Assembly (NCBI RefSeq): GCF_056746865.1
Contig: NZ_CM163382.1
Strand: one strand, 5' to 3'
DNA length: 64,000 bases
The position numbers and the translations under genes are program-made. This document shows, in pieces, positions 2,960 through 31,796 of this stretch. Below the pieces are notes generated by a model. That model had not been told where the DNA came from, did no database searches, and saw only the letters and a program-made list of their open reading frames with translations. The first letter of the stretch is position 1. Each line of letters starts with the position of its first letter.

Positions 2960-3592
2960 TTATATTAATTCATATAATTTGGCGTAGTCGATAAGCTCTA
3001 CAATTGAATGCAATCCTAGCTTGCCATAAATATTAGATTTATGCGCACTAACTGTTTTATTGCTAAGTAATAACTTATCGGCAATTTCTTTATTAGATAA
3101 TCCGCTGACCAGATAACGTAATATCGTCACTTCACGATTAGATAGCACAGTGATCGTTGAACTATTCGTGCTACATTTATTGCTTTTTATATAGTTGAGC
3201 GTTTCGCTGGGAAAAAAAGTGTATCCGGAGAGGATCATCTGAACGGCATGAAAAATATCATTCTGATCATTGCATTTACTGACAAAACCGTTAGCACCAG
3301 CTTGTATCGCTCTGCCAGCATAAAAGCATTCTGATTTCGATGATAAAAATAATACTTTCACTGTGCTCTGGATTTGTTTGATCCTTTTCAGGAAGGTAAA
3401 ACCGTCTGTTCCGGGCAAGTCTATATCCATAATGATTAAATCAACAGGACGGGTTCGGAGATAATCGATGGTTATGCGATAATCATCCGTTTTCAGGACA
3501 ATTTGCAATTCACTGTTTTTTTGCAACAGAACTTCAATAGACATTCTGATGATAGGATGAGTATCCATAATGATCACCGACGTTGGTTTCAT
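2960..3592 (-). CDS. fimZ: LuxR-family two-component response regulator
   Basis: Start taken at MKPTSVIIMD (receiver domain with DLIIMDIDLPGTDG) and C-terminal LuxR HTH; ORF track gives a longer upstream extension. Confidence 0.85.
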   Translation of the reverse strand: MKPTSVIIMDTHPIIRMSIEVLLQKNSELQIVLKTDDYRITIDYLRTRPVDLIIMDIDLPGTDGFTFLKRIKQIQSTVKVLFLSSKSECFYAGRAIQAGANGFVSKCNDQNDIFHAVQMILSGYTFFPSETLNYIKSNKCSTNSSTITVLSNREVTILRYLVSGLSNKEIADKLLLSNKTVSAHKSNIYGKLGLHSIVELIDYAKLYELI

Positions 3593-3834
3593 AGTTACCA
3601 GTCTCATAGGATCGGACAATTTTCCGTTAGGGCGGGAAATTGTACTTTGATACATGAAAATACGGGTTTTCTTGATTCAGACGCGCAGCGGTGTACGTTT
3701 GTTTGCCGCTATAGCGAAATAAATCAGAAAATCAGACGCGGTCGTTCACTTGTTCAGCAACCAGATCAAAAGCCATTGACTCAGCAAGGGTTGACCGTAT
3801 AATTCACGCGATTACACCGCATTGCGGTATCAAC

Positions 3835-3911
3835 GCGCCCTTAGCTCAGTTGGATAGAGCAACGACCTTCTAAGTCGTGGGCCGCAGGTTCGAATCCTGC
3901 AGGGCGCGCCA
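3835..3911 (+). tRNA. argU: tRNA-Arg (anticodon UCU)
   Basis: 77-nt cloverleaf GCGCCCTTAGCTCAGTTGGATAGAGC...TTCGAATCCTGCAGGGCGCGCCA with UCU anticodon; 3' 45 nt repeated at 50407-50451. Confidence 0.95.
3867..3911 (+). repeat. attL core (3' part of argU)
   Basis: 45-bp sequence cttctaagtcgtgggccgcaggttcgaatcctgcagggcgcgcca repeated at 50407-50451; integrase gene adjacent. Confidence 0.85.
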
Positions 3912-3926
3912 TTACAATTCAATCAG

Positions 3927-5090
3927 TTACGCCTTCTTTATATCCTCCATAATTCCAGAGTGGGACATATTTGGGACATTATCACCAAAAATGTCGTCTA
4001 TTTTCCTCGCATGCTCTGTCAAATGATTAGGCGCAAGGTGAGCATACCTACGAACCATTTCTATGGACTCCCATCCGCCCATTTCCTGAAGCACTGATAA
4101 TGGGACGCCTGACTGAATCAGCCAGCTTGCCCAGGTGTGTCTGAGGTCATGGAAACGGAAATCTTCAATTCCTGCACGACGACAAGCTGATAGCCATGAT
4201 GTCTTGCTGTCGATGCGCATCTTCCTGACCGCAGGCGTTGATGTTCCATCTGCTCGCTTAGCCGCCTTGGTATGTACAAACACCCATTTGTGATGCTTGC
4301 CTATTTGATCACGCAACACTTTACAGGCGGTATCGTTCAGCGCCACACCAATGGCGCGGTTTGATTTGCTCTCTTCTGGATTCACCCAGGCAACTCGTCG
4401 CTGCATGTCGATTTGTTGCCATTCCAGATTTATGATGTTCGACTTTCTCAGACCAGTTGCCAGCGCAAACTTGACGACAGATTTCAGTGGTTCGGGGCAC
4501 TCATCAATAAGGCGTTTTGCTTCCTCCTTTTCCAGCCATCTGACTCGCTTGTTTCTGACCGCTGGTATCTTGATGACAGGCGCTTTTTCCAGCCACTTCC
4601 AGTCGCGTTCTGCAGCACGGAGAATGGCCTTTATCATGGCAAGATGCTTTGCCTTTGTCTGAGTTGATACTGGCTTTGGTTCATAAACAGGCAGTTCTTT
4701 ACCTTTCCTGATGGCGGCCTGAACTTTCTGTTTCCATATTTCTTTCGTCTTTCTGTTATGCATTCTGCTTACAGCAGAGTAAATCTTTGCCTCCGAGATA
4801 TCTTTAAGCCTTATACCCTCAAAATGTTCAAGCCAGAACTCAATCCGGCTTTTATCTGAATCGAGAGATTTTTTATCAGCTTTTTCCTCAAGCCATCTTA
4901 GGCAGGCCTCTTCAAAAGTGACATCAGGTAAATCCCCTAGCTTTTCTACTCGCCAGAGTTCTGCTTTTCGCTTGTCGTGCAACTCCTGAGCTTGCCGCTT
5001 GTCCTTTGTGCCAAGAGATTCCTTAATTCGTTTCCCGCCCGGGAGCGAATACGAGGCATACCATATTTCATTTCTGCGGAAGAGTGACAT
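3927..5090 (-). CDS. intD: tyrosine recombinase / prophage integrase (argU-site type)
   Basis: 387-aa ORF with C-terminal catalytic region (HDLRHTWAS...RYAH) immediately next to tRNA attL. Confidence 0.9.
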
Positions 5091-5317
5091 TTTCTTTCCT
5101 CTGTTATGCCATCACCCGCGCTCACCTGGACAGTATGCAGCGGAGACTGAAGCGCCGCAATGCAGGCTTGCCGTGTTGTGAGGTAAGGAGATTTTGGCTT
5201 GGTTGGATCTTTACGTGTTGCCTGTAGGCGGCCTGTTCGTATCCAGTTGGTGGCGGTTGGTCTGGATATCTTAAGAAACTGACAGGCCTCATCGAGTGTG
5301 AGGCTGTATGATTCCAT
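4946..5317 (-). CDS. xis: excisionase / AlpA-like HTH DNA-binding protein
   Basis: HTH segment [26 protein letters not shown]; overlaps int start; exact start and extent uncertain. Confidence 0.5.
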
Positions 5318-5567
5318 GGTTACCTCTGCTTTTTGAACGCATGTCACGTAACTTCTTAATGTGTTCTGCCGTTTCGATCTCTTCTGCTATCCGATCTGCA
5401 TCAGCTTTATTCACAGGTTCAAAGTCATGATTAAAGCGGAACATGCTGGCGATACATGTTCTGCCTTTTCGGATGTAGTGAACTTTGTTGTGGGTAGAAC
5501 GCAGGATTTTGCAGGGAGTGCCGTGGTGGTCGACGTACCAGGTGTTAGGAAAAATGATTCTGAACAT
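5289..5567 (-). CDS. hypothetical early protein
   Basis: ORF in leftward early operon between xis and exo; boundaries uncertain. Confidence 0.35.
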   Translation of the reverse strand: MFRIIFPNTWYVDHHGTPCKILRSTHNKVHYIRKGRTCIASMFRFNHDFEPVNKADADRIAEEIETAEHIKKLRDMRSKSRGNHGIIQPHTR

Positions 5568-5614
5568 TTTTACACCTCAGTTGGACGATGTTGAAATTTG
5601 CTGCTTTGAGGCCA

Positions 5615-5833
5615 TCATAGTCCCCATTGTTTGTTCTTAAGTTCGATCTCCTCCTGGCAACTTGCACAAGTCCGACAACCCTGAACAGCCAGGCGTCTTC
5701 GCTCATCTATCGGATCGCCACACTCACAACAATGAGTTGCGGATACAGTCTGGTAGTTCAGACGACGCATTTTTATTGCTGTATTGCGCTGTAATTCTTC
5801 GATTTCTGATGCTGAATCAATGATGTCTGCCAT
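5615..5833 (-). CDS. TraR/DksA-family C4 zinc-finger protein
   Basis: 72-aa product with CxxC-x17-CxxC (CCECGD...CRTCASC) typical of phage TraR-like proteins. Confidence 0.7.
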   Translation of the reverse strand: MADIIDSASEIEELQRNTAIKMRRLNYQTVSATHCCECGDPIDERRRLAVQGCRTCASCQEEIELKNKQWGL

Positions 5834-5925
5834 CTTCCATTAATCCCTGAATTGTTGGTTAATACGCTTGAGGATGAATGCGAACAATAAAAAAGGAGCC
5901 TGTAGCTCCCTGATGATTTTGCTTT

Positions 5926-6147
5926 TCATGTTAACCGTTCCTTAAAGACGCCGTTTAACATGCCGATCGCCAGGCTTAAATGAGTCGGTGTGAATCCCAT
6001 CAGCGTTACCGTTTCACGGTGCTTCTTCAGTACGCTACGGCAAATGTCATCGACGTTTTTATCCGGAAACTGCTGTCTGGCTTTTTTGATTTCAGAATTA
6101 GCCTGACGGGCAATGCTGCGAAGGGCGTTTTCCTGCTGAGGTGTCAT
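5926..6147 (-). CDS. hypothetical early protein
   Basis: ORF in early-left operon; start chosen at internal Met (MTPQQENAL); ORF track extends to 6243. Confidence 0.4.
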   Translation of the reverse strand: MTPQQENALRSIARQANSEIKKARQQFPDKNVDDICRSVLKKHRETVTLMGFTPTHLSLAIGMLNGVFKERLT

Positions 6148-6223
6148 TGAACAAGTCCCATGTCGGCAAGCATAAGCACACAGAATATGAAGCCCGCTGC
6201 CAGAAAAATGCATTCCGTGGCTG

Positions 6224-6415
6224 TCATACCGGGTCTCTCTCATCTGCTTCTGCTTTCGCCACCATCATTTCCAGCTTTTGTGAAAGGGATGCGGCTAACG
6301 TATGAAATTCTTCGTCTGTTTCTACTGGTATTGGCACAAACCTGACTCCAATTTGAGCAAGGCTATGTGCCATCTCAATACTCGTTCTTAACTCAACAGG
6401 AGATGCTTTGTGCAT
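6224..6415 (-). CDS. hypothetical early protein
   Basis: 63-aa ORF directly downstream of exo on same strand. Confidence 0.4.
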   Translation of the reverse strand: MHKASPVELRTSIEMAHSLAQIGVRFVPIPVETDEEFHTLAASLSQKLEMMVAKAEADERDPV

Positions 6416-6566
6416 ACCGCCTCCCGTTTATTATTTATCTTCTCAGCCAGCCGCTGTGCTTTCAGGGGATTTCTGATAACAGAAAGGCCGGGAAATACCC
6501 AGCCTCGCTTTGTAATGGAGTAGACGAAAGTGATCGCGCCTACCCGGATATTATCGTGAGGATGCG

Positions 6567-7247
6567 TCATCGCCATTGCTCCCCAAATACAAAACCAATT
6601 TCAGCCAGTGCCTCGTCCATTTTTTCGATGAACTCCGGCACCATCTCGTCAAAACTCGCCATGTAATTTTCATCCCGCTCAACCACGACATAATGCAGGC
6701 CTTCACGCTTCATTCGTGGGTCATAGTTGGCAAAGTACCAGGCATCTTTTCGCGTCACCCACATGCTGTACTGCACCTGGGCCATGTAAGCCGACTTTAT
6801 GGCCTCGAAACCACCGAGCCGGAATTTCATGAAATCCCGGGAGGTAAACGGGCATTTCAGTTCAAGGCCGTTGCCGTCACTGCATAAACCATCGGGAGAG
6901 CAGGCGGTGCGCATACTTTCGTCGCGATAGATGATCGGGGATTCAGTAACATTCACGCCGGAAGTAAACTCAAACAGGGCTCTGGCGTCGTTCTCGTACT
7001 GTTTTCCCCAGGCCAGCGCCTTAGCATTAACTTCCGGAGCCACACCGGTGCAAACCTCAGCCAGCAGGGTGTGGAAGTAGGACATTTTCATGTCAGGCCA
7101 CTTCTTTCCTGAGCGGGGCTTTGCTATCACGTTGTGAACTTCTGAAGCGGTGATGACGCCGAGCCGTAATTTGTGCCATGCATCATCCCCCTGTTCGACA
7201 GCTCTCACGTCGATCCCGGTACGCTGCAGGATAATGTCCGGTGTCAT
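6567..7247 (-). CDS. exo: lambda-type exonuclease (Red alpha)
   Basis: 226-aa product recognised as near-identical to lambda Exo ([25 protein letters not shown]...). Confidence 0.95.
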
Positions 7248-8029
7248 GCTGCCACCTTCTGCTCAGTGGCTTTCTGTTTCAGGAATCCAAGAGCTTTCAC
7301 TGCTTCGGCCTGTGTCAGTTCTGACGATGCGCGAATGTCGCGGCGAAATATCTGGGAACAGAGCGGCAATAAGTCGTCATCCCATGTTTTATCCAGGGCG
7401 ATCAGCAGAGTGTTAATCTCCTGCATGGTTTCATCGTTAACCGGAGTGATGTCGCGTTCCGGCTGACGTTCTGCAGTGTATGCGGTATTTTCGACAATGC
7501 GCTCGGCTTCATCCTTGTCATAGATACCAGCAAATCCGAAGGCCAGACGGGCACACTGAATCATGGCTTTATGACGTAACATCCGTTTGGGATGCGACTG
7601 CCACGGTCCGGTGATTTCTCTGCCTTCGCGGGTTTTGAATGGTTCGCGGCGGCATTCATCCATCCACTCGGTAACGCAGATCGGATGATTGCGGTCCTTG
7701 CGGTAAATCCGGCATGTGCAGGATTCATTGTCCTGCTCAAAGTCCATACCATCAAACTGCTGGTTTTCATTGATGATGCGGGACCAGCCATCAACGCCCA
7801 CCACCGGAACGATGCCATTCTGCTTATCAGGAAAGGCGTAAATTTCTTTCGTCCATGGATTAAGGCCGTACTGGTTGGCAACGATCAGTAATGCGATGAA
7901 CTGCGCATCGCTGGCATCACCTTTAAATGCCGTCTGGCGAAGAGTGGTGATCAGTTCCTGTGGGTCGACAGAATCCATGCCGACACGTTCAGCCAGCTTC
8001 CCTGCCAGCGTTGCGAGTGCTGTACTCAT
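7244..8029 (-). CDS. bet: recombination protein Bet (Red beta)
   Basis: 261-aa product recognised as lambda Bet; 4-bp overlap with exo. Confidence 0.95.
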
Positions 8030-8034
8030 CCGTT

Positions 8035-8331
8035 TTATACCTCTGAATCAATATCAACCTGGTGGTGAGCAATGGTTTCAACCATGTACCGGATGTGTTC
8101 TGCCATGCGCTCCTGAAACTCAACATCGTCATCAAACGCACGGGTAATGGCTTTTTTGCTGGCCCCGTGGCGTTGCAAATGATCGATGCATAGCGATTCA
8201 AACAGGTGCTGGGGCAGGCCTTTTTCCATGTCGTCTGCCAGTTCTGCCTCTTTCTCTTCACGGGCGATCTGCTGGTAGTGACGCGCCCAGCTCTGAGCCT
8301 CAAGACGATCCTGAATGTAATAAGCGTTCAT
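8035..8331 (-). CDS. gam: RecBCD inhibitor Gam (98-aa short form)
   Basis: [21 protein letters not shown]... matches lambda GamS. Confidence 0.9.
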
Positions 8332-8406: not shown

Positions 8407-8697
8407 TTAGTGATTCAGACCGTTGCCGCGTCCGTCGAGAAAAACTTCCACGAGCAAGTCACGGGTATAAGTGCGCTCAATGCCGCGATGCAGATAAAGT
8501 CGTCCGCGTAAATTAGCTGATGCAGTCCAGGTACCATCTTTGCGTTTGACCAGCATTCCTGGCATGACCGCACCGCGATTAACGGTCTGCGTTCCGTAAT
8601 GTTGATGAACCATAAAAACTCCTGCCCGTAAGCTGGGCTGCTGAACATATAAAGACTTCTGCGCGTATTCAGGCGGTGGATGGCCGCCGGTTGTCAT
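8407..8697 (-). CDS. hypothetical protein, first gene of leftward early operon
   Basis: 96-aa ORF directly downstream of the putative pL/OL region; an alternative 77-aa frame (8415-8648) overlaps. Confidence 0.35.
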   Translation of the reverse strand: MTTGGHPPPEYAQKSLYVQQPSLRAGVFMVHQHYGTQTVNRGAVMPGMLVKRKDGTWTASANLRGRLYLHRGIERTYTRDLLVEVFLDGRGNGLNH

Positions 8698-8879
8698 AAC
8701 TAAGCCGCCTCGTTGAAGCGACTAAGGTATGAAATGTTGAGTTGATTTCAGCTGGTCACACCGACGTTCACGCGTCCGTTTCATCCCTCGCACTCCCCGA
8801 AGCCTGCTGAAATTCAAGCTGCGGATCTAAGCGGTCATCGCAACGGTGAATCAGGTAGTTGCCGTATCGTTGTGTTGTT

Positions 8880-8960
8880 GCGATGAACTTATTTAAAACT
8901 ATAGTTGTTTTATCGTCAACAACAAAAGTTGTTTTATTGGTTGTTTTAGATATAACTGGT
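8880..8960 (-). promoter_or_regulatory. leftward early promoter/operator region (pL/OL analogue)
   Basis: Palindromes GTTGTTTTATCGTCAACAAC and AACAACAAAAGTTGTT overlapping a minus-strand TTGACG-17-TTAAAT promoter-like sequence. Confidence 0.55.
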
Positions 8961-9054: not shown

Positions 9055-9087
9055 GAGGGCAAAAGAAAACCCGGCACGGTGGCCGGG
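9055..9087 (-). terminator. rho-independent terminator closing the repressor operon
   Basis: Minus-strand stem CCCGGC-CACCGT-GCCGGG followed by TTTTCTTTT, 9 bp past the stop of the 310-aa gene. Confidence 0.7.
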
Positions 9088-9095
9088 TAGCATCA

Positions 9096-10028
9096 CTATT
9101 CGATTTTTTTAACCATGTAGTTACGTCGTGATGTTCCTAATCTTTCATTGTGAATCTCAGAAACGCTTACTACGAGCGATATTCGTTCACCAACTTTATA
9201 TTTACTTTGAATTTCTCCTAACATATCAATCGGATAAGAAGCCTTTATTTTTCCAAGCTCGCTTGCAATCTCCAATTTCCCGTACATGGATAAAATAGCA
9301 AGTTCGCCTGATATATGCTCATCCGGTAGCTGAATGACCTTCGTTAAAGCTAAGCGAGCATTCAGTTTTTTTATATCTTCTGAAGAAATTGACACTTGTC
9401 TGGTACCATCACTTAAAGGTCCAATCCAAGTAAGATCAAAGTTAAGACTATATTTTTCGCACTCATTTATGATGTTTTTTAGGTTAGCTGTTGATTGCGA
9501 ACCAATTTCGGCAATTTTAGCCGTGAATGTTTCTTCATCAATGGATGAGAGTAGTGCAAAAATCTCCTTAACAGCATGACTGGATACTGTTTCGATGAGC
9601 TCGCAAGAACCAGTAGAAAAAGTAACACCTAACTTCGTCGAACCTGGACGCAAGTCTGCCAATCTCATGTCTAATGATTTTTTAACATCAATCGGCACAC
9701 GACTAGAATCTTTCCCAGATCCAAGTCGGTAAACTGCTTTCTGTACAAGGGATGCGAGATTACCTGAAATTACAGATAGAATATCTAACGGAATAGACCC
9801 GAAATCGACCAAAACACCTTTTAATCTCAACTCCATGAAATCACGTAAAGGATGTTGGTTATCGATTGCACGTTGTCTCTCTCGGAGATCGCTCAGATGG
9901 GAGTCAAGTGATCTAAATATAATGTCATCAGCAAATGATCTCCCCTTATTTTGAGCAAGCAGATCCACATCGCGTTGAATGAACGCAATTCGCTCCTTGA
10001 GGGAGTTGAATGTTTTTTCTTCGCTCAT
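9096..10028 (-). CDS. hypothetical 310-aa protein, second gene of repressor-linked cargo operon
   Basis: AT-rich ORF, start overlaps upstream gene stop by 4 bp; no recognisable motif; occupies the rexAB-equivalent position. Confidence 0.7.
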   Translation of the reverse strand: MSEEKTFNSLKERIAFIQRDVDLLAQNKGRSFADDIIFRSLDSHLSDLRERQRAIDNQHPLRDFMELRLKGVLVDFGSIPLDILSVISGNLASLVQKAVYRLGSGKDSSRVPIDVKKSLDMRLADLRPGSTKLGVTFSTGSCELIETVSSHAVKEIFALLSSIDEETFTAKIAEIGSQSTANLKNIINECEKYSLNFDLTWIGPLSDGTRQVSISSEDIKKLNARLALTKVIQLPDEHISGELAILSMYGKLEIASELGKIKASYPIDMLGEIQSKYKVGERISLVVSVSEIHNERLGTSRRNYMVKKIE

Positions 10029-10498
10029 AACATTACCCTCACGAGGCCTTTAGGATTCTCCTTCCGATCAAAACCAAACCACCCTCTCCAGTAACTTCGC
10101 CTTTCACTATAATCGATTTCTGGATGATTTTCAGGCAGCAAAAGAACGTCAATGCTGTAGTTTTCTTTAATAAAATCTCTATTTAACAATGAGCTGACCA
10201 ATGGCATCAGCGTGTTTGGCAAAGAGTTTAGGGCCAAATAATCGACGACCACGAGTATATCTATGTCATCAGGTTCAGGTTTCTCTGTAGTGAATGAACC
10301 ATCGATCCACACTTCAGAGAAACATAGACACTGCTGATTAACAAGTTTAAATTGCTCAATAAGCTGTATAAAATTACAGTATAGCATACTTCTTCTAACG
10401 GATTTTGGGAAGGTGTCGACACAAAGAGACTTGATGCCATCACTATCCATATCATGAAATCCTGCTGTAAGAAGAGGTGGGAAGCTAGGCTTTTCCAT
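10025..10498 (-). CDS. nucleotidyltransferase-fold (minimal NTase-like) protein, first gene of cargo operon
   Basis: Motif WIDGSFTTEKPEPDDIDILVVVD fits the G-S...D-x-D signature of Pol-beta-type NTases; 82 bp downstream of cI on same strand. Confidence 0.65.
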   Translation of the reverse strand: MEKPSFPPLLTAGFHDMDSDGIKSLCVDTFPKSVRRSMLYCNFIQLIEQFKLVNQQCLCFSEVWIDGSFTTEKPEPDDIDILVVVDYLALNSLPNTLMPLVSSLLNRDFIKENYSIDVLLLPENHPEIDYSERRSYWRGWFGFDRKENPKGLVRVML

Positions 10499-11269: not shown

Positions 11270-11373
11270 AGTCCAAATGTACAACCAAGGTTTTATTCCA
11301 TCAAACGAAAATGGTTGTTGACTAAAAACAACCATAGTTTTAATCTTGATTCAAATTAACCACGGAGGTTGTT
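11270..11373. promoter_or_regulatory. OR-like operator/promoter region between repressor and cro-like gene
   Basis: Palindrome ATGGTTGTTGACTAAAAACAACCAT overlapping a rightward TTGACT -35; GGAGG RBS before cro-like ATG. Confidence 0.6.
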
Positions 11374-14474: not shown

Positions 14475-15977
14475 TTAAATTGCATCTGCAAACTCTGGGG
14501 TTTTTCGCTCAGGTATAATTGATGAGTTGCTGTTGTCACTTTTTTTATTTTCATGATTACGAATAGCCAATGACTCATTAAAGTCTTTTGCGACTGCTGT
14601 CTCAATAAATTCAATTTCTGAATCAGAGTGTTTTTTAACAGCTTCTTTGATCTCATCCAGAGTAACATAGAAAAACTCTTTTCTACGATTTACAAGATTG
14701 ACTCTCTTTTTATCGAAGACATCATGTAGTTTTTTTTCTAATGATGGAGCGTCCTCCGAATAAATCATGGCATGTACATCAAAAATAAAAGGAACAGATG
14801 CATCACCGAGCTCATTTACACGGTCTTGCGGATCAAGACGTCGTGTCATGCCTATTTTATAAACATTCTCCCCAAAAGAACCTATGTTCGAAATAATATA
14901 AACATGACCTTGTTTGGTTTGTTGTGCCATGGATAATGCTCTTTGATGCTTTGATTCAGCCTGCGACAAACTCTGTTCTAGTTCGGCAATGCGATTTTCG
15001 AGGCGCTGCTTCATGTCACCAGTAACTTTTTCCATTTCCTTTCTTGCAGCTTCAATTGCTTTTTTATAACGGCGCTCTTCTGCCTCTGCGTCTTGCATGG
15101 CCTTTTCTATTTCTCGTTGTGCACGCTCCTCCTCTCTCATTTGTGCCCTTATTTCTGCCTGTTCTTCTTTTTCTTTCTGTTTTTGCTCACGATATTCATG
15201 GGTAAGCCACAATTCCTCAAGTTTTTTATTGAGGTATTTAGTGTTTATATATATGTGATTTTGCTCGTTTAGTTTATTTATGGCCTCAAATGCCTTTGTG
15301 ATGCGTTCTTCCATTTTAGTGATGTTTTTCCACGTGCAATTGCTAATTGCAGCATCACATTCATTATTAAATGCTCTAGTAGTTAGCCTGATATTTCTGT
15401 CTGTCATTTTTTTACCCTCTGCTCGAGAGCCTTCAACAGTCCATTGGGTTGTACAATATACTGCGCCAGAGTGGGTTTTATCCCGCAGCATTAATTTCTG
15501 TTCATCCCTGATGGATTTTATTTTGTTTTTAAATTGCTCTGAATCTTCAAAATTAAAATGAGGTTCGTAAAATCCTAGTTCGGCTAGCTCAACATCTTCT
15601 GAATAAATAGAAATTTGCCTTACTAGTTTATCATATATTTCTTTCTTCTCTTTATAAGTTCTTCTTAGCTCTTGGATTTGTTTATTGATACCATCCATTT
15701 TTTCAATGGTGTTTGTTAGTTCATTATTGGCATTTTCTTTTACTTTTAGGGATTCTTCTTTTATTATGGAGCATTCTTGCTCTGTTTTCTCAATAAGCTT
15801 CTTACATTCTTCTTCTACATTAAAATAATCTGCAAAGCGAGATTTGTATTCTTCATTTTTTTGATTGCTATCACTTAATTCTAATTGTATTTTTTTGATG
15901 CGTTTGATTGCAGCTATATAAAGAACAAGAACAACCAATAAAAATATGATTGCAAGTAATAGAGGAGTTTGAGTCAT
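14475..15977 (-). CDS. membrane-anchored coiled-coil protein with C-terminal T5orf172/GIY-YIG-like domain (candidate defence/exclusion gene)
   Basis: N-terminal hydrophobic helix, long K/E-rich coiled coil, C-terminal GHVYIISN...YKIGMTRRLDPQDRVNEL...VPF motif; very AT-rich; opposite strand to surrounding early genes. Confidence 0.75.
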   Translation of the reverse strand: MTQTPLLLAIIFLLVVLVLYIAAIKRIKKIQLELSDSNQKNEEYKSRFADYFNVEEECKKLIEKTEQECSIIKEESLKVKENANNELTNTIEKMDGINKQIQELRRTYKEKKEIYDKLVRQISIYSEDVELAELGFYEPHFNFEDSEQFKNKIKSIRDEQKLMLRDKTHSGAVYCTTQWTVEGSRAEGKKMTDRNIRLTTRAFNNECDAAISNCTWKNITKMEERITKAFEAINKLNEQNHIYINTKYLNKKLEELWLTHEYREQKQKEKEEQAEIRAQMREEERAQREIEKAMQDAEAEERRYKKAIEAARKEMEKVTGDMKQRLENRIAELEQSLSQAESKHQRALSMAQQTKQGHVYIISNIGSFGENVYKIGMTRRLDPQDRVNELGDASVPFIFDVHAMIYSEDAPSLEKKLHDVFDKKRVNLVNRRKEFFYVTLDEIKEAVKKHSDSEIEFIETAVAKDFNESLAIRNHENKKSDNSNSSIIPERKTPEFADAI

Positions 15978-16370: not shown

Positions 16371-16789
16371 ACATTCGGTGTTTTACTTCGACAGCCAGAA
16401 TTGGGAGTCTCTATTCGTCTGGCGGCTAAAGGTGATATGGAAATCGTTATGTTTTGGCCTGAGGTAGTTGTAACTGTTGTAGCAGCTATGGATGTGATCA
16501 TCATGGTGTCCATTTACTGGGGTTGACGACATGATTTATCCGGCGCTATATTCTGTGCGTTGCCGCAAAATCGGCACACGGGATTGGCGTCCCGGGATAC
16601 TACTCAACGCATACCGCGTTAAGCGGTTTTTTTGTGCGCTAAGCACGGCTATGCCCAAATTATGGTGGGCTGTGTGAGGGCTTCTTCGGAAGCGCCGGGT
16701 TTGAGTAGCCGGTTACGCCAACCTTACACAGTTCACCACCAGTCGATTGGCGTCGTTGGTGGTGATGGTTAACCTGATGAGGTGATACT

Positions 16790-30382: not shown

Positions 30383-30715
30383 ATGGCGACAAAAGAAGAG
30401 TTTAACCATTACCAGCCGCTGGGTAACAGTGATCCGGCTCATACAGCAATTGCGCCTGGCGGATTGAGTGCGAAAACGCCTGCAATGACCCCACTGATGC
30501 TGGATGGCACTACCCGTAAGCTGGTTGTGTGGGATGGCACCACCGACGGTGCAGCCGTTGGCATTCTGGCGGTTGCTGCTGACCAGACCAGCACCACACT
30601 GACGTTCTACAAGTCCGGCTCGTTCCGTTATGAGGATGTGCTCTGGCCGGAGGCTGCCAGCGACGAGACGAAAAAACGGACCGCGTTTGCCGGAACGGCA
30701 ATCAGCATCGTTTAA
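30383..30715 (+). CDS. D: head decoration protein D
   Basis: 110-aa product recognised as lambda gpD. Confidence 0.95.
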
Positions 30716-30770: not shown

Positions 30771-31796
30771 ATGTCTGTATATACAACTGCAGAATTACTG
30801 GCATCGACCCAGCATCACTTTAAGTTCGATCCGCTGTTTCTGCGCCTGTTTTTCCGTGAAACCTATCCTTTCACCACGGAGAAAGTCTATCTCTCACAAA
30901 TTCCGGGACTGGTAAACATGGCGCTGTACGTTTCGCCGATTGTTTCCGGTGAGGTTATCCGATCCCGTGGCGGCTCCACCTCTGAATTTACGCCGGGTTA
31001 TGTCAAACCCAAGCATGAGGTGAATCCGCAGATGACCCTGCGTCGCCTGCCGGATGAAGAACCGCAGAACCTGGCTGACCCGGCTTACCGTCGTCGCCGT
31101 ATTATTCGGCAGAATATGCTGGATGAAAATCTGGCGATTGCCCAGGTCGAAGAGATGCAGGCAGTTTCTGCCGTGCTTAAGGGCAAATACACCATGACCG
31201 GTGAAGCCTTCGATCCGGTTGAGGTGGATATGGGCCGCAGTGAGGCGAATAACATCACGCAGTCCGGCGGCACGGAGTGGAGCAAGCGTGACAAGTCCAC
31301 GTATGATCCGACCGACGATATCGAAGCCTACGCGCTGAACGCCAGCGGAGTGGTGAATATCATCGTGTTTGATCCGAAAGGCTGGGCGCTGTTCCGTTCC
31401 TTCAAAGCCGTCAGGGAGAAGCTGGATACTCGTCGCGGCTCTCATTCCGAGCTGGAGACAGCGGTGAAAGACCTGGGCAAAGCGGTGTCCTACAAGGGGA
31501 TGTATGGCGATGTGGCCATCGTCGTGTATTCCGGACAGTACGTGGAAAACGGCGTCAAAAAGAACTTCCTGCCGGACAACACGATGGTGCTGGGGAACAC
31601 TCAGGCACGCGGTCTGCGCACCTATGGCTGCATTCAGGATGCGGACGCACAGCGCGAAGGCATTAACTCCTCTGCCCGTTACCCGAAAAACTGGGTGACC
31701 ACCGGCGATCCGGCGCGTGAGTTCACCATGATTCAGTCAGCACCGCTGATGCTGCTGGCTGACCCTGATGAGTTCGTGTCCGTACAACTGGCGTAA
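30771..31796 (+). CDS. E: major capsid protein E
   Basis: 341-aa product recognised as lambda gpE. Confidence 0.95.
   Translation: MSVYTTAELLASTQHHFKFDPLFLRLFFRETYPFTTEKVYLSQIPGLVNMALYVSPIVSGEVIRSRGGSTSEFTPGYVKPKHEVNPQMTLRRLPDEEPQNLADPAYRRRRIIRQNMLDENLAIAQVEEMQAVSAVLKGKYTMTGEAFDPVEVDMGRSEANNITQSGGTEWSKRDKSTYDPTDDIEAYALNASGVVNIIVFDPKGWALFRSFKAVREKLDTRRGSHSELETAVKDLGKAVSYKGMYGDVAIVVYSGQYVENGVKKNFLPDNTMVLGNTQARGLRTYGCIQDADAQREGINSSARYPKNWVTTGDPAREFTMIQSAPLMLLADPDEFVSVQLA

Follow-up and report, generated by a model that had tools for sequence, protein, structure and literature searches.

What do the small genes between xis and exo of a lambdoid prophage encode, and does one of them act on the RNA polymerase of the host? 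We have taken up this question for a stretch of 64,000 nucleotides (nt) from the NCBI RefSeq assembly GCF_056746865.1, contig NZ_CM163382.1, which is called the window below. The window is part of an Escherichia coli chromosome, in which a lambdoid prophage sits at the tRNA-Arg gene argU. The tRNA-Arg(tct) gene at 3835-3911 adjoins an intD-type integrase gene and fimZ (2960-3655), and in the identical locus in RefSeq the integrase is named intD and stands beside fimZ and tRNA-Arg. All the genes discussed here lie on the minus strand. Our main finding concerns the gene at 5615-5833, whose product of 72 amino acids (aa) is a member of the TraR family and the orthologue of lambda Orf73. Overall, it is very probable that the lambdoid prophage has its exo-xis block in this interval and that this protein acts on the host RNA polymerase as lambda Orf73 does.

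The original prediction, made from the DNA letters and their open reading frames (ORFs), had given this ORF a C4 zinc finger typical of phage TraR homologues, and the profile searches bear this out rather than refute it. The Pfam family zf-dskA_traR (PF01258) matches at E 2.8e-9 (37.3 bits, cut-off 24.9), and PHROG 54, named 'DksA-like zinc-finger protein', at E 3.6e-26. The F-plasmid TraR (PDB 5w1s) aligns over the full length at E 7.7e-5. In lambda, the 73-aa ORF at 30392-30613 is 86-87% identical to the protein; it is the published orf73, whose product is also called Orf2310, yet it carries no annotation in the RefSeq lambda record. In RefSeq, the identical protein is named 'TraR/DksA family transcriptional regulator' (WP_000763385.1).

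For the homologues, 1.84 billion cluster representatives were scanned, which gave 613 relatives at E no more than 1e-3, and conservation was read from an alignment of 49 diverse full-length family members. The zinc-finger cysteines C35, C38, C56 and C59, with CxxC-17-CxxC spacing, are invariant in 49 of 49. The DxxDxA motif is formed by D3, D6 and A8, which align with D3, D6 and A8 of TraR and are kept in 43, 48 and 47 of the 49 members, respectively. The arginine pair R46/R47, equivalent to R48/R49 of TraR, is kept in 48 and 47 members, and the acidic E64 in the C-terminal helix in 45. Apart from these four, the protein has two extra cysteines, one common in the family (C53, 26/49) and one rare (C36, 5/49).

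The AlphaFold model made from the same 49-member alignment reaches a predicted local distance difference test score (pLDDT) of 88.2 and consists of a helix at 2-23, a zinc knuckle, and helices at 44-49 and 57-70. In this predicted architecture, one N-terminal helix takes the place of the DksA coiled coil. Among PDB entries, Foldseek ranks TraR in its complex with E. coli RNA polymerase first (6n57_M; E 4.9e-4, template modelling (TM) score 0.59, 68 columns), and the next are YbiI (2kgo), TraR (5w1s) and DksA (7khi). The root-mean-square deviation of 3.4-3.8 Å reflects helix angles, as has been reported for the models of lambda Orf73. One may ask at this point whether the protein is just a generic zinc-ribbon binder of nucleic acids with no link to RNA polymerase regulation, as C4 zinc ribbons are widespread and the weak Foldseek matches include ribosomal and other zinc proteins. 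However, those weak matches have E above 0.7, while TraR, YbiI and DksA top the list. Moreover, the conserved features include DxxDxA, R46/R47 and E64, none of which belongs to the zinc knuckle, and a protein with 86% identity to this one has been shown by experiment to bind RNA polymerase. We give this explanation next to no chance.

The function of the TraR-like protein can be approached through its lambda orthologue. Purified lambda Orf73 and DksA compete for RNA polymerase, and Orf73 inhibits rrnB P1 with a half-maximal inhibitory concentration (IC50) of ~50 nM, and rpsT P2 as well, without guanosine tetraphosphate (ppGpp); D3N or D6N abolishes the activity (PMC9239242). It is expressed from pL in the early lytic phase and makes the host grow more slowly, and after induction with mitomycin C it increases the yield of phage 3- to 4-fold (PMC9239242). 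The general expectation that phage TraR homologues bind RNA polymerase and reprogram host transcription is in this way published for lambda Orf73, and for the allele in the window, RNA polymerase binding, promoter inhibition and the gain in yield are to be expected from its 86% identity to that protein.

On this basis the 72-aa protein would act without DNA binding and without ppGpp. Its N-terminal helix would enter the secondary channel of RNA polymerase, where D3 and D6 would approach the active site, while the zinc-ribbon domain (R46/R47) would rest on the beta-prime rim helices and Si3, and the C-terminal helix would touch the beta lobe and Si1. The kinetics of open complexes would then be altered in such a way that short-lived promoters, i.e., those of rRNA and ribosomal-protein genes, are inhibited, and host resources would thereby be redirected to phage production. 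The neighbours orf60a, orf63, orf61 and the DUF4222 gene would be accessory modulators of the lysis-lysogeny balance. Judging from the synteny with lambda and from a candidate promoter, the exo-xis block, whose small genes come last in the leftward early operon, would be transcribed after repressor inactivation or infection.

Several observations weigh against this picture. Firstly, the NCBIfam model TIGR02419 (C4_traR_proteo) gives 53.9 bits for the protein, narrowly below its cut-off of 59.7. Secondly, 10 of the 71 aligned residues differ from lambda Orf73 and are clustered in the C-terminal helix; since this helix contacts beta Si1 in TraR, quantitative differences from Orf73 are possible. 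Thirdly, promoter activation by lambda Orf73 is weak if any, and its authors suspect that two extra cysteines explain this failure (PMC9239242); since two extra cysteines are found here as in Orf73, 'reprogramming' may mean inhibition only. Fourthly, no N antiterminator gene was found between the candidate pL and the kil-like gene and gam in the window, and two terminator-like hairpins (Table 1) stand upstream of the TraR-like gene. Finally, the direction of the effect is disputed, as one group reports that orf73 lowers the phage yield and is pro-lysogenic.

The dispute brings in another explanation, namely that the TraR-like protein does bind RNA polymerase, but that it has been selected for a pro-lysogenic role or for one in the cell cycle, and not for its effect on burst size. 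Host growth would then be damped, the initiation of host DNA replication blocked, and the lysis-lysogeny decision tilted. Reviews of the deletion studies of the Gdansk group describe orf73 and ea22 as pro-lysogenic; earlier work placed orf73 within a 'bin' cluster that blocks host replication initiation; and the same biochemical activity is compatible with such a role. On the other hand, an in-frame deletion of lambda orf73 and D3A/D6A mutants gave a 3- to 4-fold lower yield after induction, and dnaA mRNA was barely affected by lambda orf73 (PMC9239242), while the sequence by itself does not separate the pro-lysogenic role from the burst role. We consider this explanation unlikely, though one to be taken seriously, and prefer the reading in which the protein acts in the manner of lambda Orf73.

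As for expression, a candidate for the leftward early promoter pL lies at 8891-8919. The 9-mers GTTGTTGAC, AAAACAACC and TAGTTTTAA are common to this site and to the pR region (11314-11343), beside the genes for the cI-like and cro-like proteins. A single mini-ORF, at 8722-8817, separates the candidate pL from the kil-like gene (8700-8920); its arginine-rich stretch MKRTRERR is reminiscent of the motif by which N proteins bind RNA. A put-like antiterminator RNA was sought in the pL leader, and the fold was like that of shuffled sequence (z -0.40), with no Rfam match. Since the pL-proximal DNA is also present in phages isolated as viable particles, the arrangement without N works somehow. The hairpin inside orf60a corresponds to about lambda 31265-31287, probably the site of the terminator tL3.

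The original prediction had filled the interval with four small ORFs flanked by xis and exo, and had left all but the TraR-like one unassigned. The four ORFs are all present at their positions on the minus strand, and the two flanks hold (Table 1). The product of xis covers the full excisionase profile phrog_2907 at E 5.9e-46 and falls just under the cut-off of TIGR01764 (27.7 bits against 28.8). But six ORFs share the interval, since a 29-codon ORF (5840-5929) and orf60a (6388-6576) had been missed; orf60a overlaps the exo stop and lies mostly beyond 6415, the end first given for the interval. The word 'unassigned' remains correct for the molecular mechanism, but orf61 and orf63 (8DSB) have been named and studied, and the DUF4222 family includes RgdR. 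The leftward order would be the candidate pL (~8.9 kb), kil-like, gam, bet, exo, orf60a, orf63, orf61, the 29-codon ORF, the TraR-like gene, the DUF4222 gene, xis, and int.

Table 1 Features of the xis-exo interval and of the leftward early region in the window.
Feature	Positions	Strand	Evidence or remark
int, 387-aa tyrosine integrase	3927-5090	-	
xis, excisionase-type helix-turn-helix (HTH), 123 aa from ATG 5317	4946-5317	-	PF12728 HTH_17 E 1.5e-8
DUF4222 gene, 92 aa	5289-5567	-	PF13973
TraR-family gene, 72 aa, lambda orf73 orthologue	5615-5833	-	PF01258, PHROG 54
29-codon ORF MKSKIIRELQAPFLLFAFILKRINQQFRD	5840-5929	-	counterpart of 31-aa lambda ORF
Terminator-like hairpin with U-run inside 29-codon ORF	5893-5911	-	consensus scan; -10.7 kcal/mol, z -2.3
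orf61 long form, 105 aa from first ATG (M1)	5926-6243	-	phrog_303 E 2.7e-43
orf63 (DUF1382), 63 aa	6224-6415	-	PF07131; GGGAGG ribosome-binding site 6422-6427
orf60a (DUF1317), 60-62 aa	6388-6576	-	PF07026 E 5.9e-38; 95% identity to lambda
Strong terminator-like hairpin inside orf60a	6484-6506	-	-19.3 kcal/mol, z -3.95, 0/200 shuffles as good
exo, upstream block boundary	6567-7247	-	97.8% identity to lambda Exo; PF09588 E 2.5e-30
bet	7244-8029	-	
gam	8035-8331	-	
kil-like gene	8407-8697	-	
Candidate leftward early promoter pL, TTGACG-17 nt-TTAAAT	8891-8919	-	operator-like repeats flank

ORFs of these sizes are frequent by chance, 6.5 kb of this sequence containing 91 that reach 25 aa or more, and the case for real genes rests on other evidence. 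The Pfam gathering cut-off is passed by three of the four ORFs listed at first, i.e., those matching PF13973 (E 1.9e-19), PF01258 and PF07131 (E 3e-31). All four match PHROG families and have syntenic lambda counterparts with 86-98% protein identity. Compared with lambda, the zinc-finger gene shows 23 nt differences, 12 synonymous and 11 non-synonymous, which gives a ratio of non-synonymous to synonymous change (pN/pS) of 0.25; only this gene and exo have enough differences from lambda for the ratio to be interpreted. In addition, the genes of the block overlap. ATGA stop/start overlaps join exo to orf60a and orf61 to the 29-codon ORF, and longer ones join orf60a to orf63 (28 nt) and orf63 to orf61 (20 nt). 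Such overlaps are typical of translational coupling. At the other end of the block, xis shares 29 nt with the end of the DUF4222 gene and 145 nt with int, compared with a xis/int overlap of 23 nt in lambda, and a similar long overlap is found in a Salmonella prophage. We have also observed that the Prokaryotic Genome Annotation Pipeline (PGAP) annotates xis as a 66-nt pseudogene fragment only, despite its match to the full excisionase profile.

The block could alternatively be what is left of a cryptic prophage, in decay and unexpressed, its ORFs being non-functional. Related copies do carry disruptions, as orf61 frameshifts are common, the lambda orf61 is truncated and IS21 lies in the exo of one genome; furthermore, PGAP flags xis as a fragment, and no N gene follows the candidate pL. 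In the window, however, all six ORFs are intact, the pN/pS value points to purifying selection on the zinc-finger gene, and xis matches the excisionase profile in full. Phages that were isolated as viable particles also have the block and the pL-proximal DNA, with 97-99% identity, and near-identical blocks occur in the viable phages Turner, ev243 and PhiR68_2 (98.6-98.8%). We regard a remnant as highly improbable. The IS21 case is NZ_CP030768.1 (L003 4279-7094), whose block is identical to the one analysed here; that prophage copy is decaying, with its small genes intact.

Considering the genes upstream of the TraR-like one, the orf63 product has 94% identity to lambda Orf63, and PDB 8dsb matches its residues 2-62 at E 1.1e-32. 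Lambda Orf63, for which 8DSB is the nuclear magnetic resonance structure, is reported to be pro-lytic. The next gene, orf61, has three candidate starts, namely M1 at 6243, M11 at 6213 (the PHROG 303 start) and M33 at 6147 (the RefSeq/PGAP start, 73 aa). The conserved core is the 73 aa beginning at M33. Most of the divergent Orf61 matches turned out to be copies of this one E. coli gene altered by frameshifts or mosaic exchange. An A6 run at 6082-6087 in the window is A7 in lambda, by which the lambda orf61 is truncated, and a tblastn match of orf61 to lambda is broken into two frames. This agrees with a report that lambda Orf61 is truncated relative to its counterparts in Shiga toxin (Stx) phages (PMC8614690). 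Several independent frameshift variants near the A-run are found among the database homologues, which indicates that orf61 has been recurrently disrupted. Programmed frameshifting at this run has been considered and rejected, as a +1 shift would be required in lambda and no signal in favour of it was found. The name 'cell division protein ZapA', given by NCBI to some orf61 copies, was set aside too, since it goes back to a sub-threshold Pfam match only (E 0.021).

The 29-codon ORF agrees in 28 of its 29 residues with a 31-aa lambda ORF (L001 2921-3016), and searches of Pfam, PHROGs and NCBIfam gave no family for it. According to a review, additional peptides, 7 and 31 aa long, were detected in the exo-xis block by ribosome profiling of lambda (PMC8614690).

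We have further examined the distribution of the block. Many complete E. coli genomes contain the DNA of 5289-6415 with 100% identity, and 3417 of 5426 have a match; the genes on it carry the RefSeq labels DUF4222 domain-containing protein, TraR/DksA family transcriptional regulator, hypothetical protein, and DUF1382 family protein. Since identical DNA is present in many genomes and is labelled in this way, the finding is already known. That is, the identity assigned to the zinc-finger gene is correct but not new, as it has a characterised orthologue and its identical copies are already annotated in RefSeq.

Among 80 related IMG/VR loci, the order orf60a-orf63-orf61-orf73 between exo and xis is kept in 31, the rest being variants, and tblastn found no match to lambda Ea22, Ea8.5 or Orf55 in any of the 80. 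The close relatives in IMG/VR, at 96-100% identity, are useless for substitution analysis but informative on mosaicism. In ~20 of the 80, the segment 6227-6413, i.e., orf63, is swapped for a gene of a Dam-type N6-adenine methyltransferase (L030 2553-3110), and in ~8 the segment 5967-6420, with orf63 and orf61, is swapped for a gene of a 354-aa DndB-like (DGQHR) protein (L039 2283-3347). Since the junctions of these swaps fall at gene boundaries, the genes are treated by evolution as discrete cassettes, which supports their being real genes, and the exo-xis block is a hotspot for the exchange of accessory genes.

On the xis side of the TraR-like gene, the DUF4222 gene stands where lambda has ea22, ea8.5 and orf55. 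Its product matches PF13973 with 69.4 bits (cut-off 27), and this family is found in enterobacterial prophages only; the gene has a TraR-like neighbour in a prophage of Salmonella and lacks one in a prophage of Citrobacter. The predicted structure is a small Tudor/SH3-like beta-barrel (~10-52) followed by a long C-terminal helix (54-81). A PDB sequence search with the protein returned nothing even at E 10, a Foldseek search with the model gave no significant match, and PADLOC found no defence-system match for either the DUF4222 or the TraR-like protein.

The DUF4222 family has one member with a studied function. RgdR (ECs1581), from a prophage of enterohaemorrhagic E. coli (EHEC) O157:H7, activates type III secretion of the enterocyte effacement locus (LEE) via Ler and represses motility, and its RGD motif is required for the activation of type III secretion (PMC3378721). 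The R20C variant of RgdR is inactive. RgdR matches PF13973 at E 2.1e-23, and belongs to the same family as the window protein. The two proteins are similar in size and both prophage-borne, at 24% identity. They differ in that the RGD of RgdR (residues 20-22) faces N7-T8-W9 of the window protein, which has no RGD anywhere, and in that the RgdR gene lies in a P4-like or phage-inducible chromosomal island (PICI)-like element beside a primase gene, while the DUF4222 gene lies in the exo-xis block.

There is a hint in the model that the predicted Tudor-like barrel may most resemble RNA-polymerase-binding domains. Small beta-barrels, however, are ubiquitous. It is conceivable, though rather improbable, that the DUF4222/RgdR proteins are Tudor-like cofactors of RNA polymerase, which would make the DUF4222 protein the second small protein of the block to target the polymerase. 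The barrel would then dock on the beta lobe like the C-terminal domain of UvrD/PcrA and the interaction domains of CarD/Mfd, and the long helix would be the effector arm. If this is true, the 'co-factor' activity of RgdR gains a mechanism, the prophage places two modulators of RNA polymerase side by side, and the reading bears on how prophages tune the expression of EHEC virulence genes. This structural hint, as a model-based hypothesis only, is the one part of the analysis that could open something new.

The practical value of the analysis lies in annotation. The six ORFs can be named, DUF4222 can be recorded in place of ea22 in a common type of argU prophage, and a likely start can be given for orf61, that of the conserved core (M33, 6147).

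In the same prophage we have made some other observations. A candidate defence pair, PDC-M63A/PDC-M63B (DUF6932 and a 310-aa partner), lies at 9096-10498 on the minus strand, directly downstream of the cI-like repressor gene, at the position of rexAB in lambda, and is followed by a strong terminator at 9069-9088. The PD-Lambda-1 defence family is matched at E 1.9e-198 by a protein of 500 aa with DUF4041 and T5orf172/MUG113 domains, the gene of which (14475-15977, minus strand) comes directly behind the replication genes. In addition, Rfam places the Hfq-binding small RNA isrK at 16561-16633 beside the C4 antisense RNA at 16658-16743, both on the plus strand.

In comparison with known systems, the block departs from the lambda reference in lacking ea22, in carrying DUF4222, and in having an intact orf61. 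Of the five genes conserved in the lambdoid exo-xis block, four, namely orf60a, orf63, orf61 and orf73, are found here in the same order together with the peptide ORF. With ea8.5 and orf55 also absent, orf73 is followed directly by DUF4222 and then by xis, whereas in lambda the gene after orf73 is ea22. The orf61 of the window is the long form of the Stx phages, and xis and int belong to the argU/DLP12 type instead of the lambda one. The nucleotide identity to lambda is 89% for the TraR-like gene against 95-97% for its neighbours, which suggests a mosaic junction near the 3' end of this gene.

At the protein level, lambda Orf73 has the same six cysteines and the same DxxDxA and ExxRL motifs as the window protein, and its gene takes the same place, downstream of orf61 and a small peptide ORF; the window protein is one residue shorter, and its ten substitutions are mostly in the last 12 residues. 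DksA shares the zinc-finger Pfam family with the window protein and, as in the TraR-family mode, uses the secondary-channel site and offers the same pair of aspartates to the active site. It is, on the other hand, a protein of ~150 aa with the aspartates on the tip of a coiled coil, requires ppGpp for full activity, and is encoded by a chromosomal housekeeping gene. The F-plasmid TraR, which is the best structural match, has the same size and three-part architecture, and all its hallmarks align with those of the window protein at ~30% identity. It differs in being carried by a conjugative plasmid and not by a phage, and in having four cysteines and activating some promoters, while lambda Orf73 activates weakly if at all.

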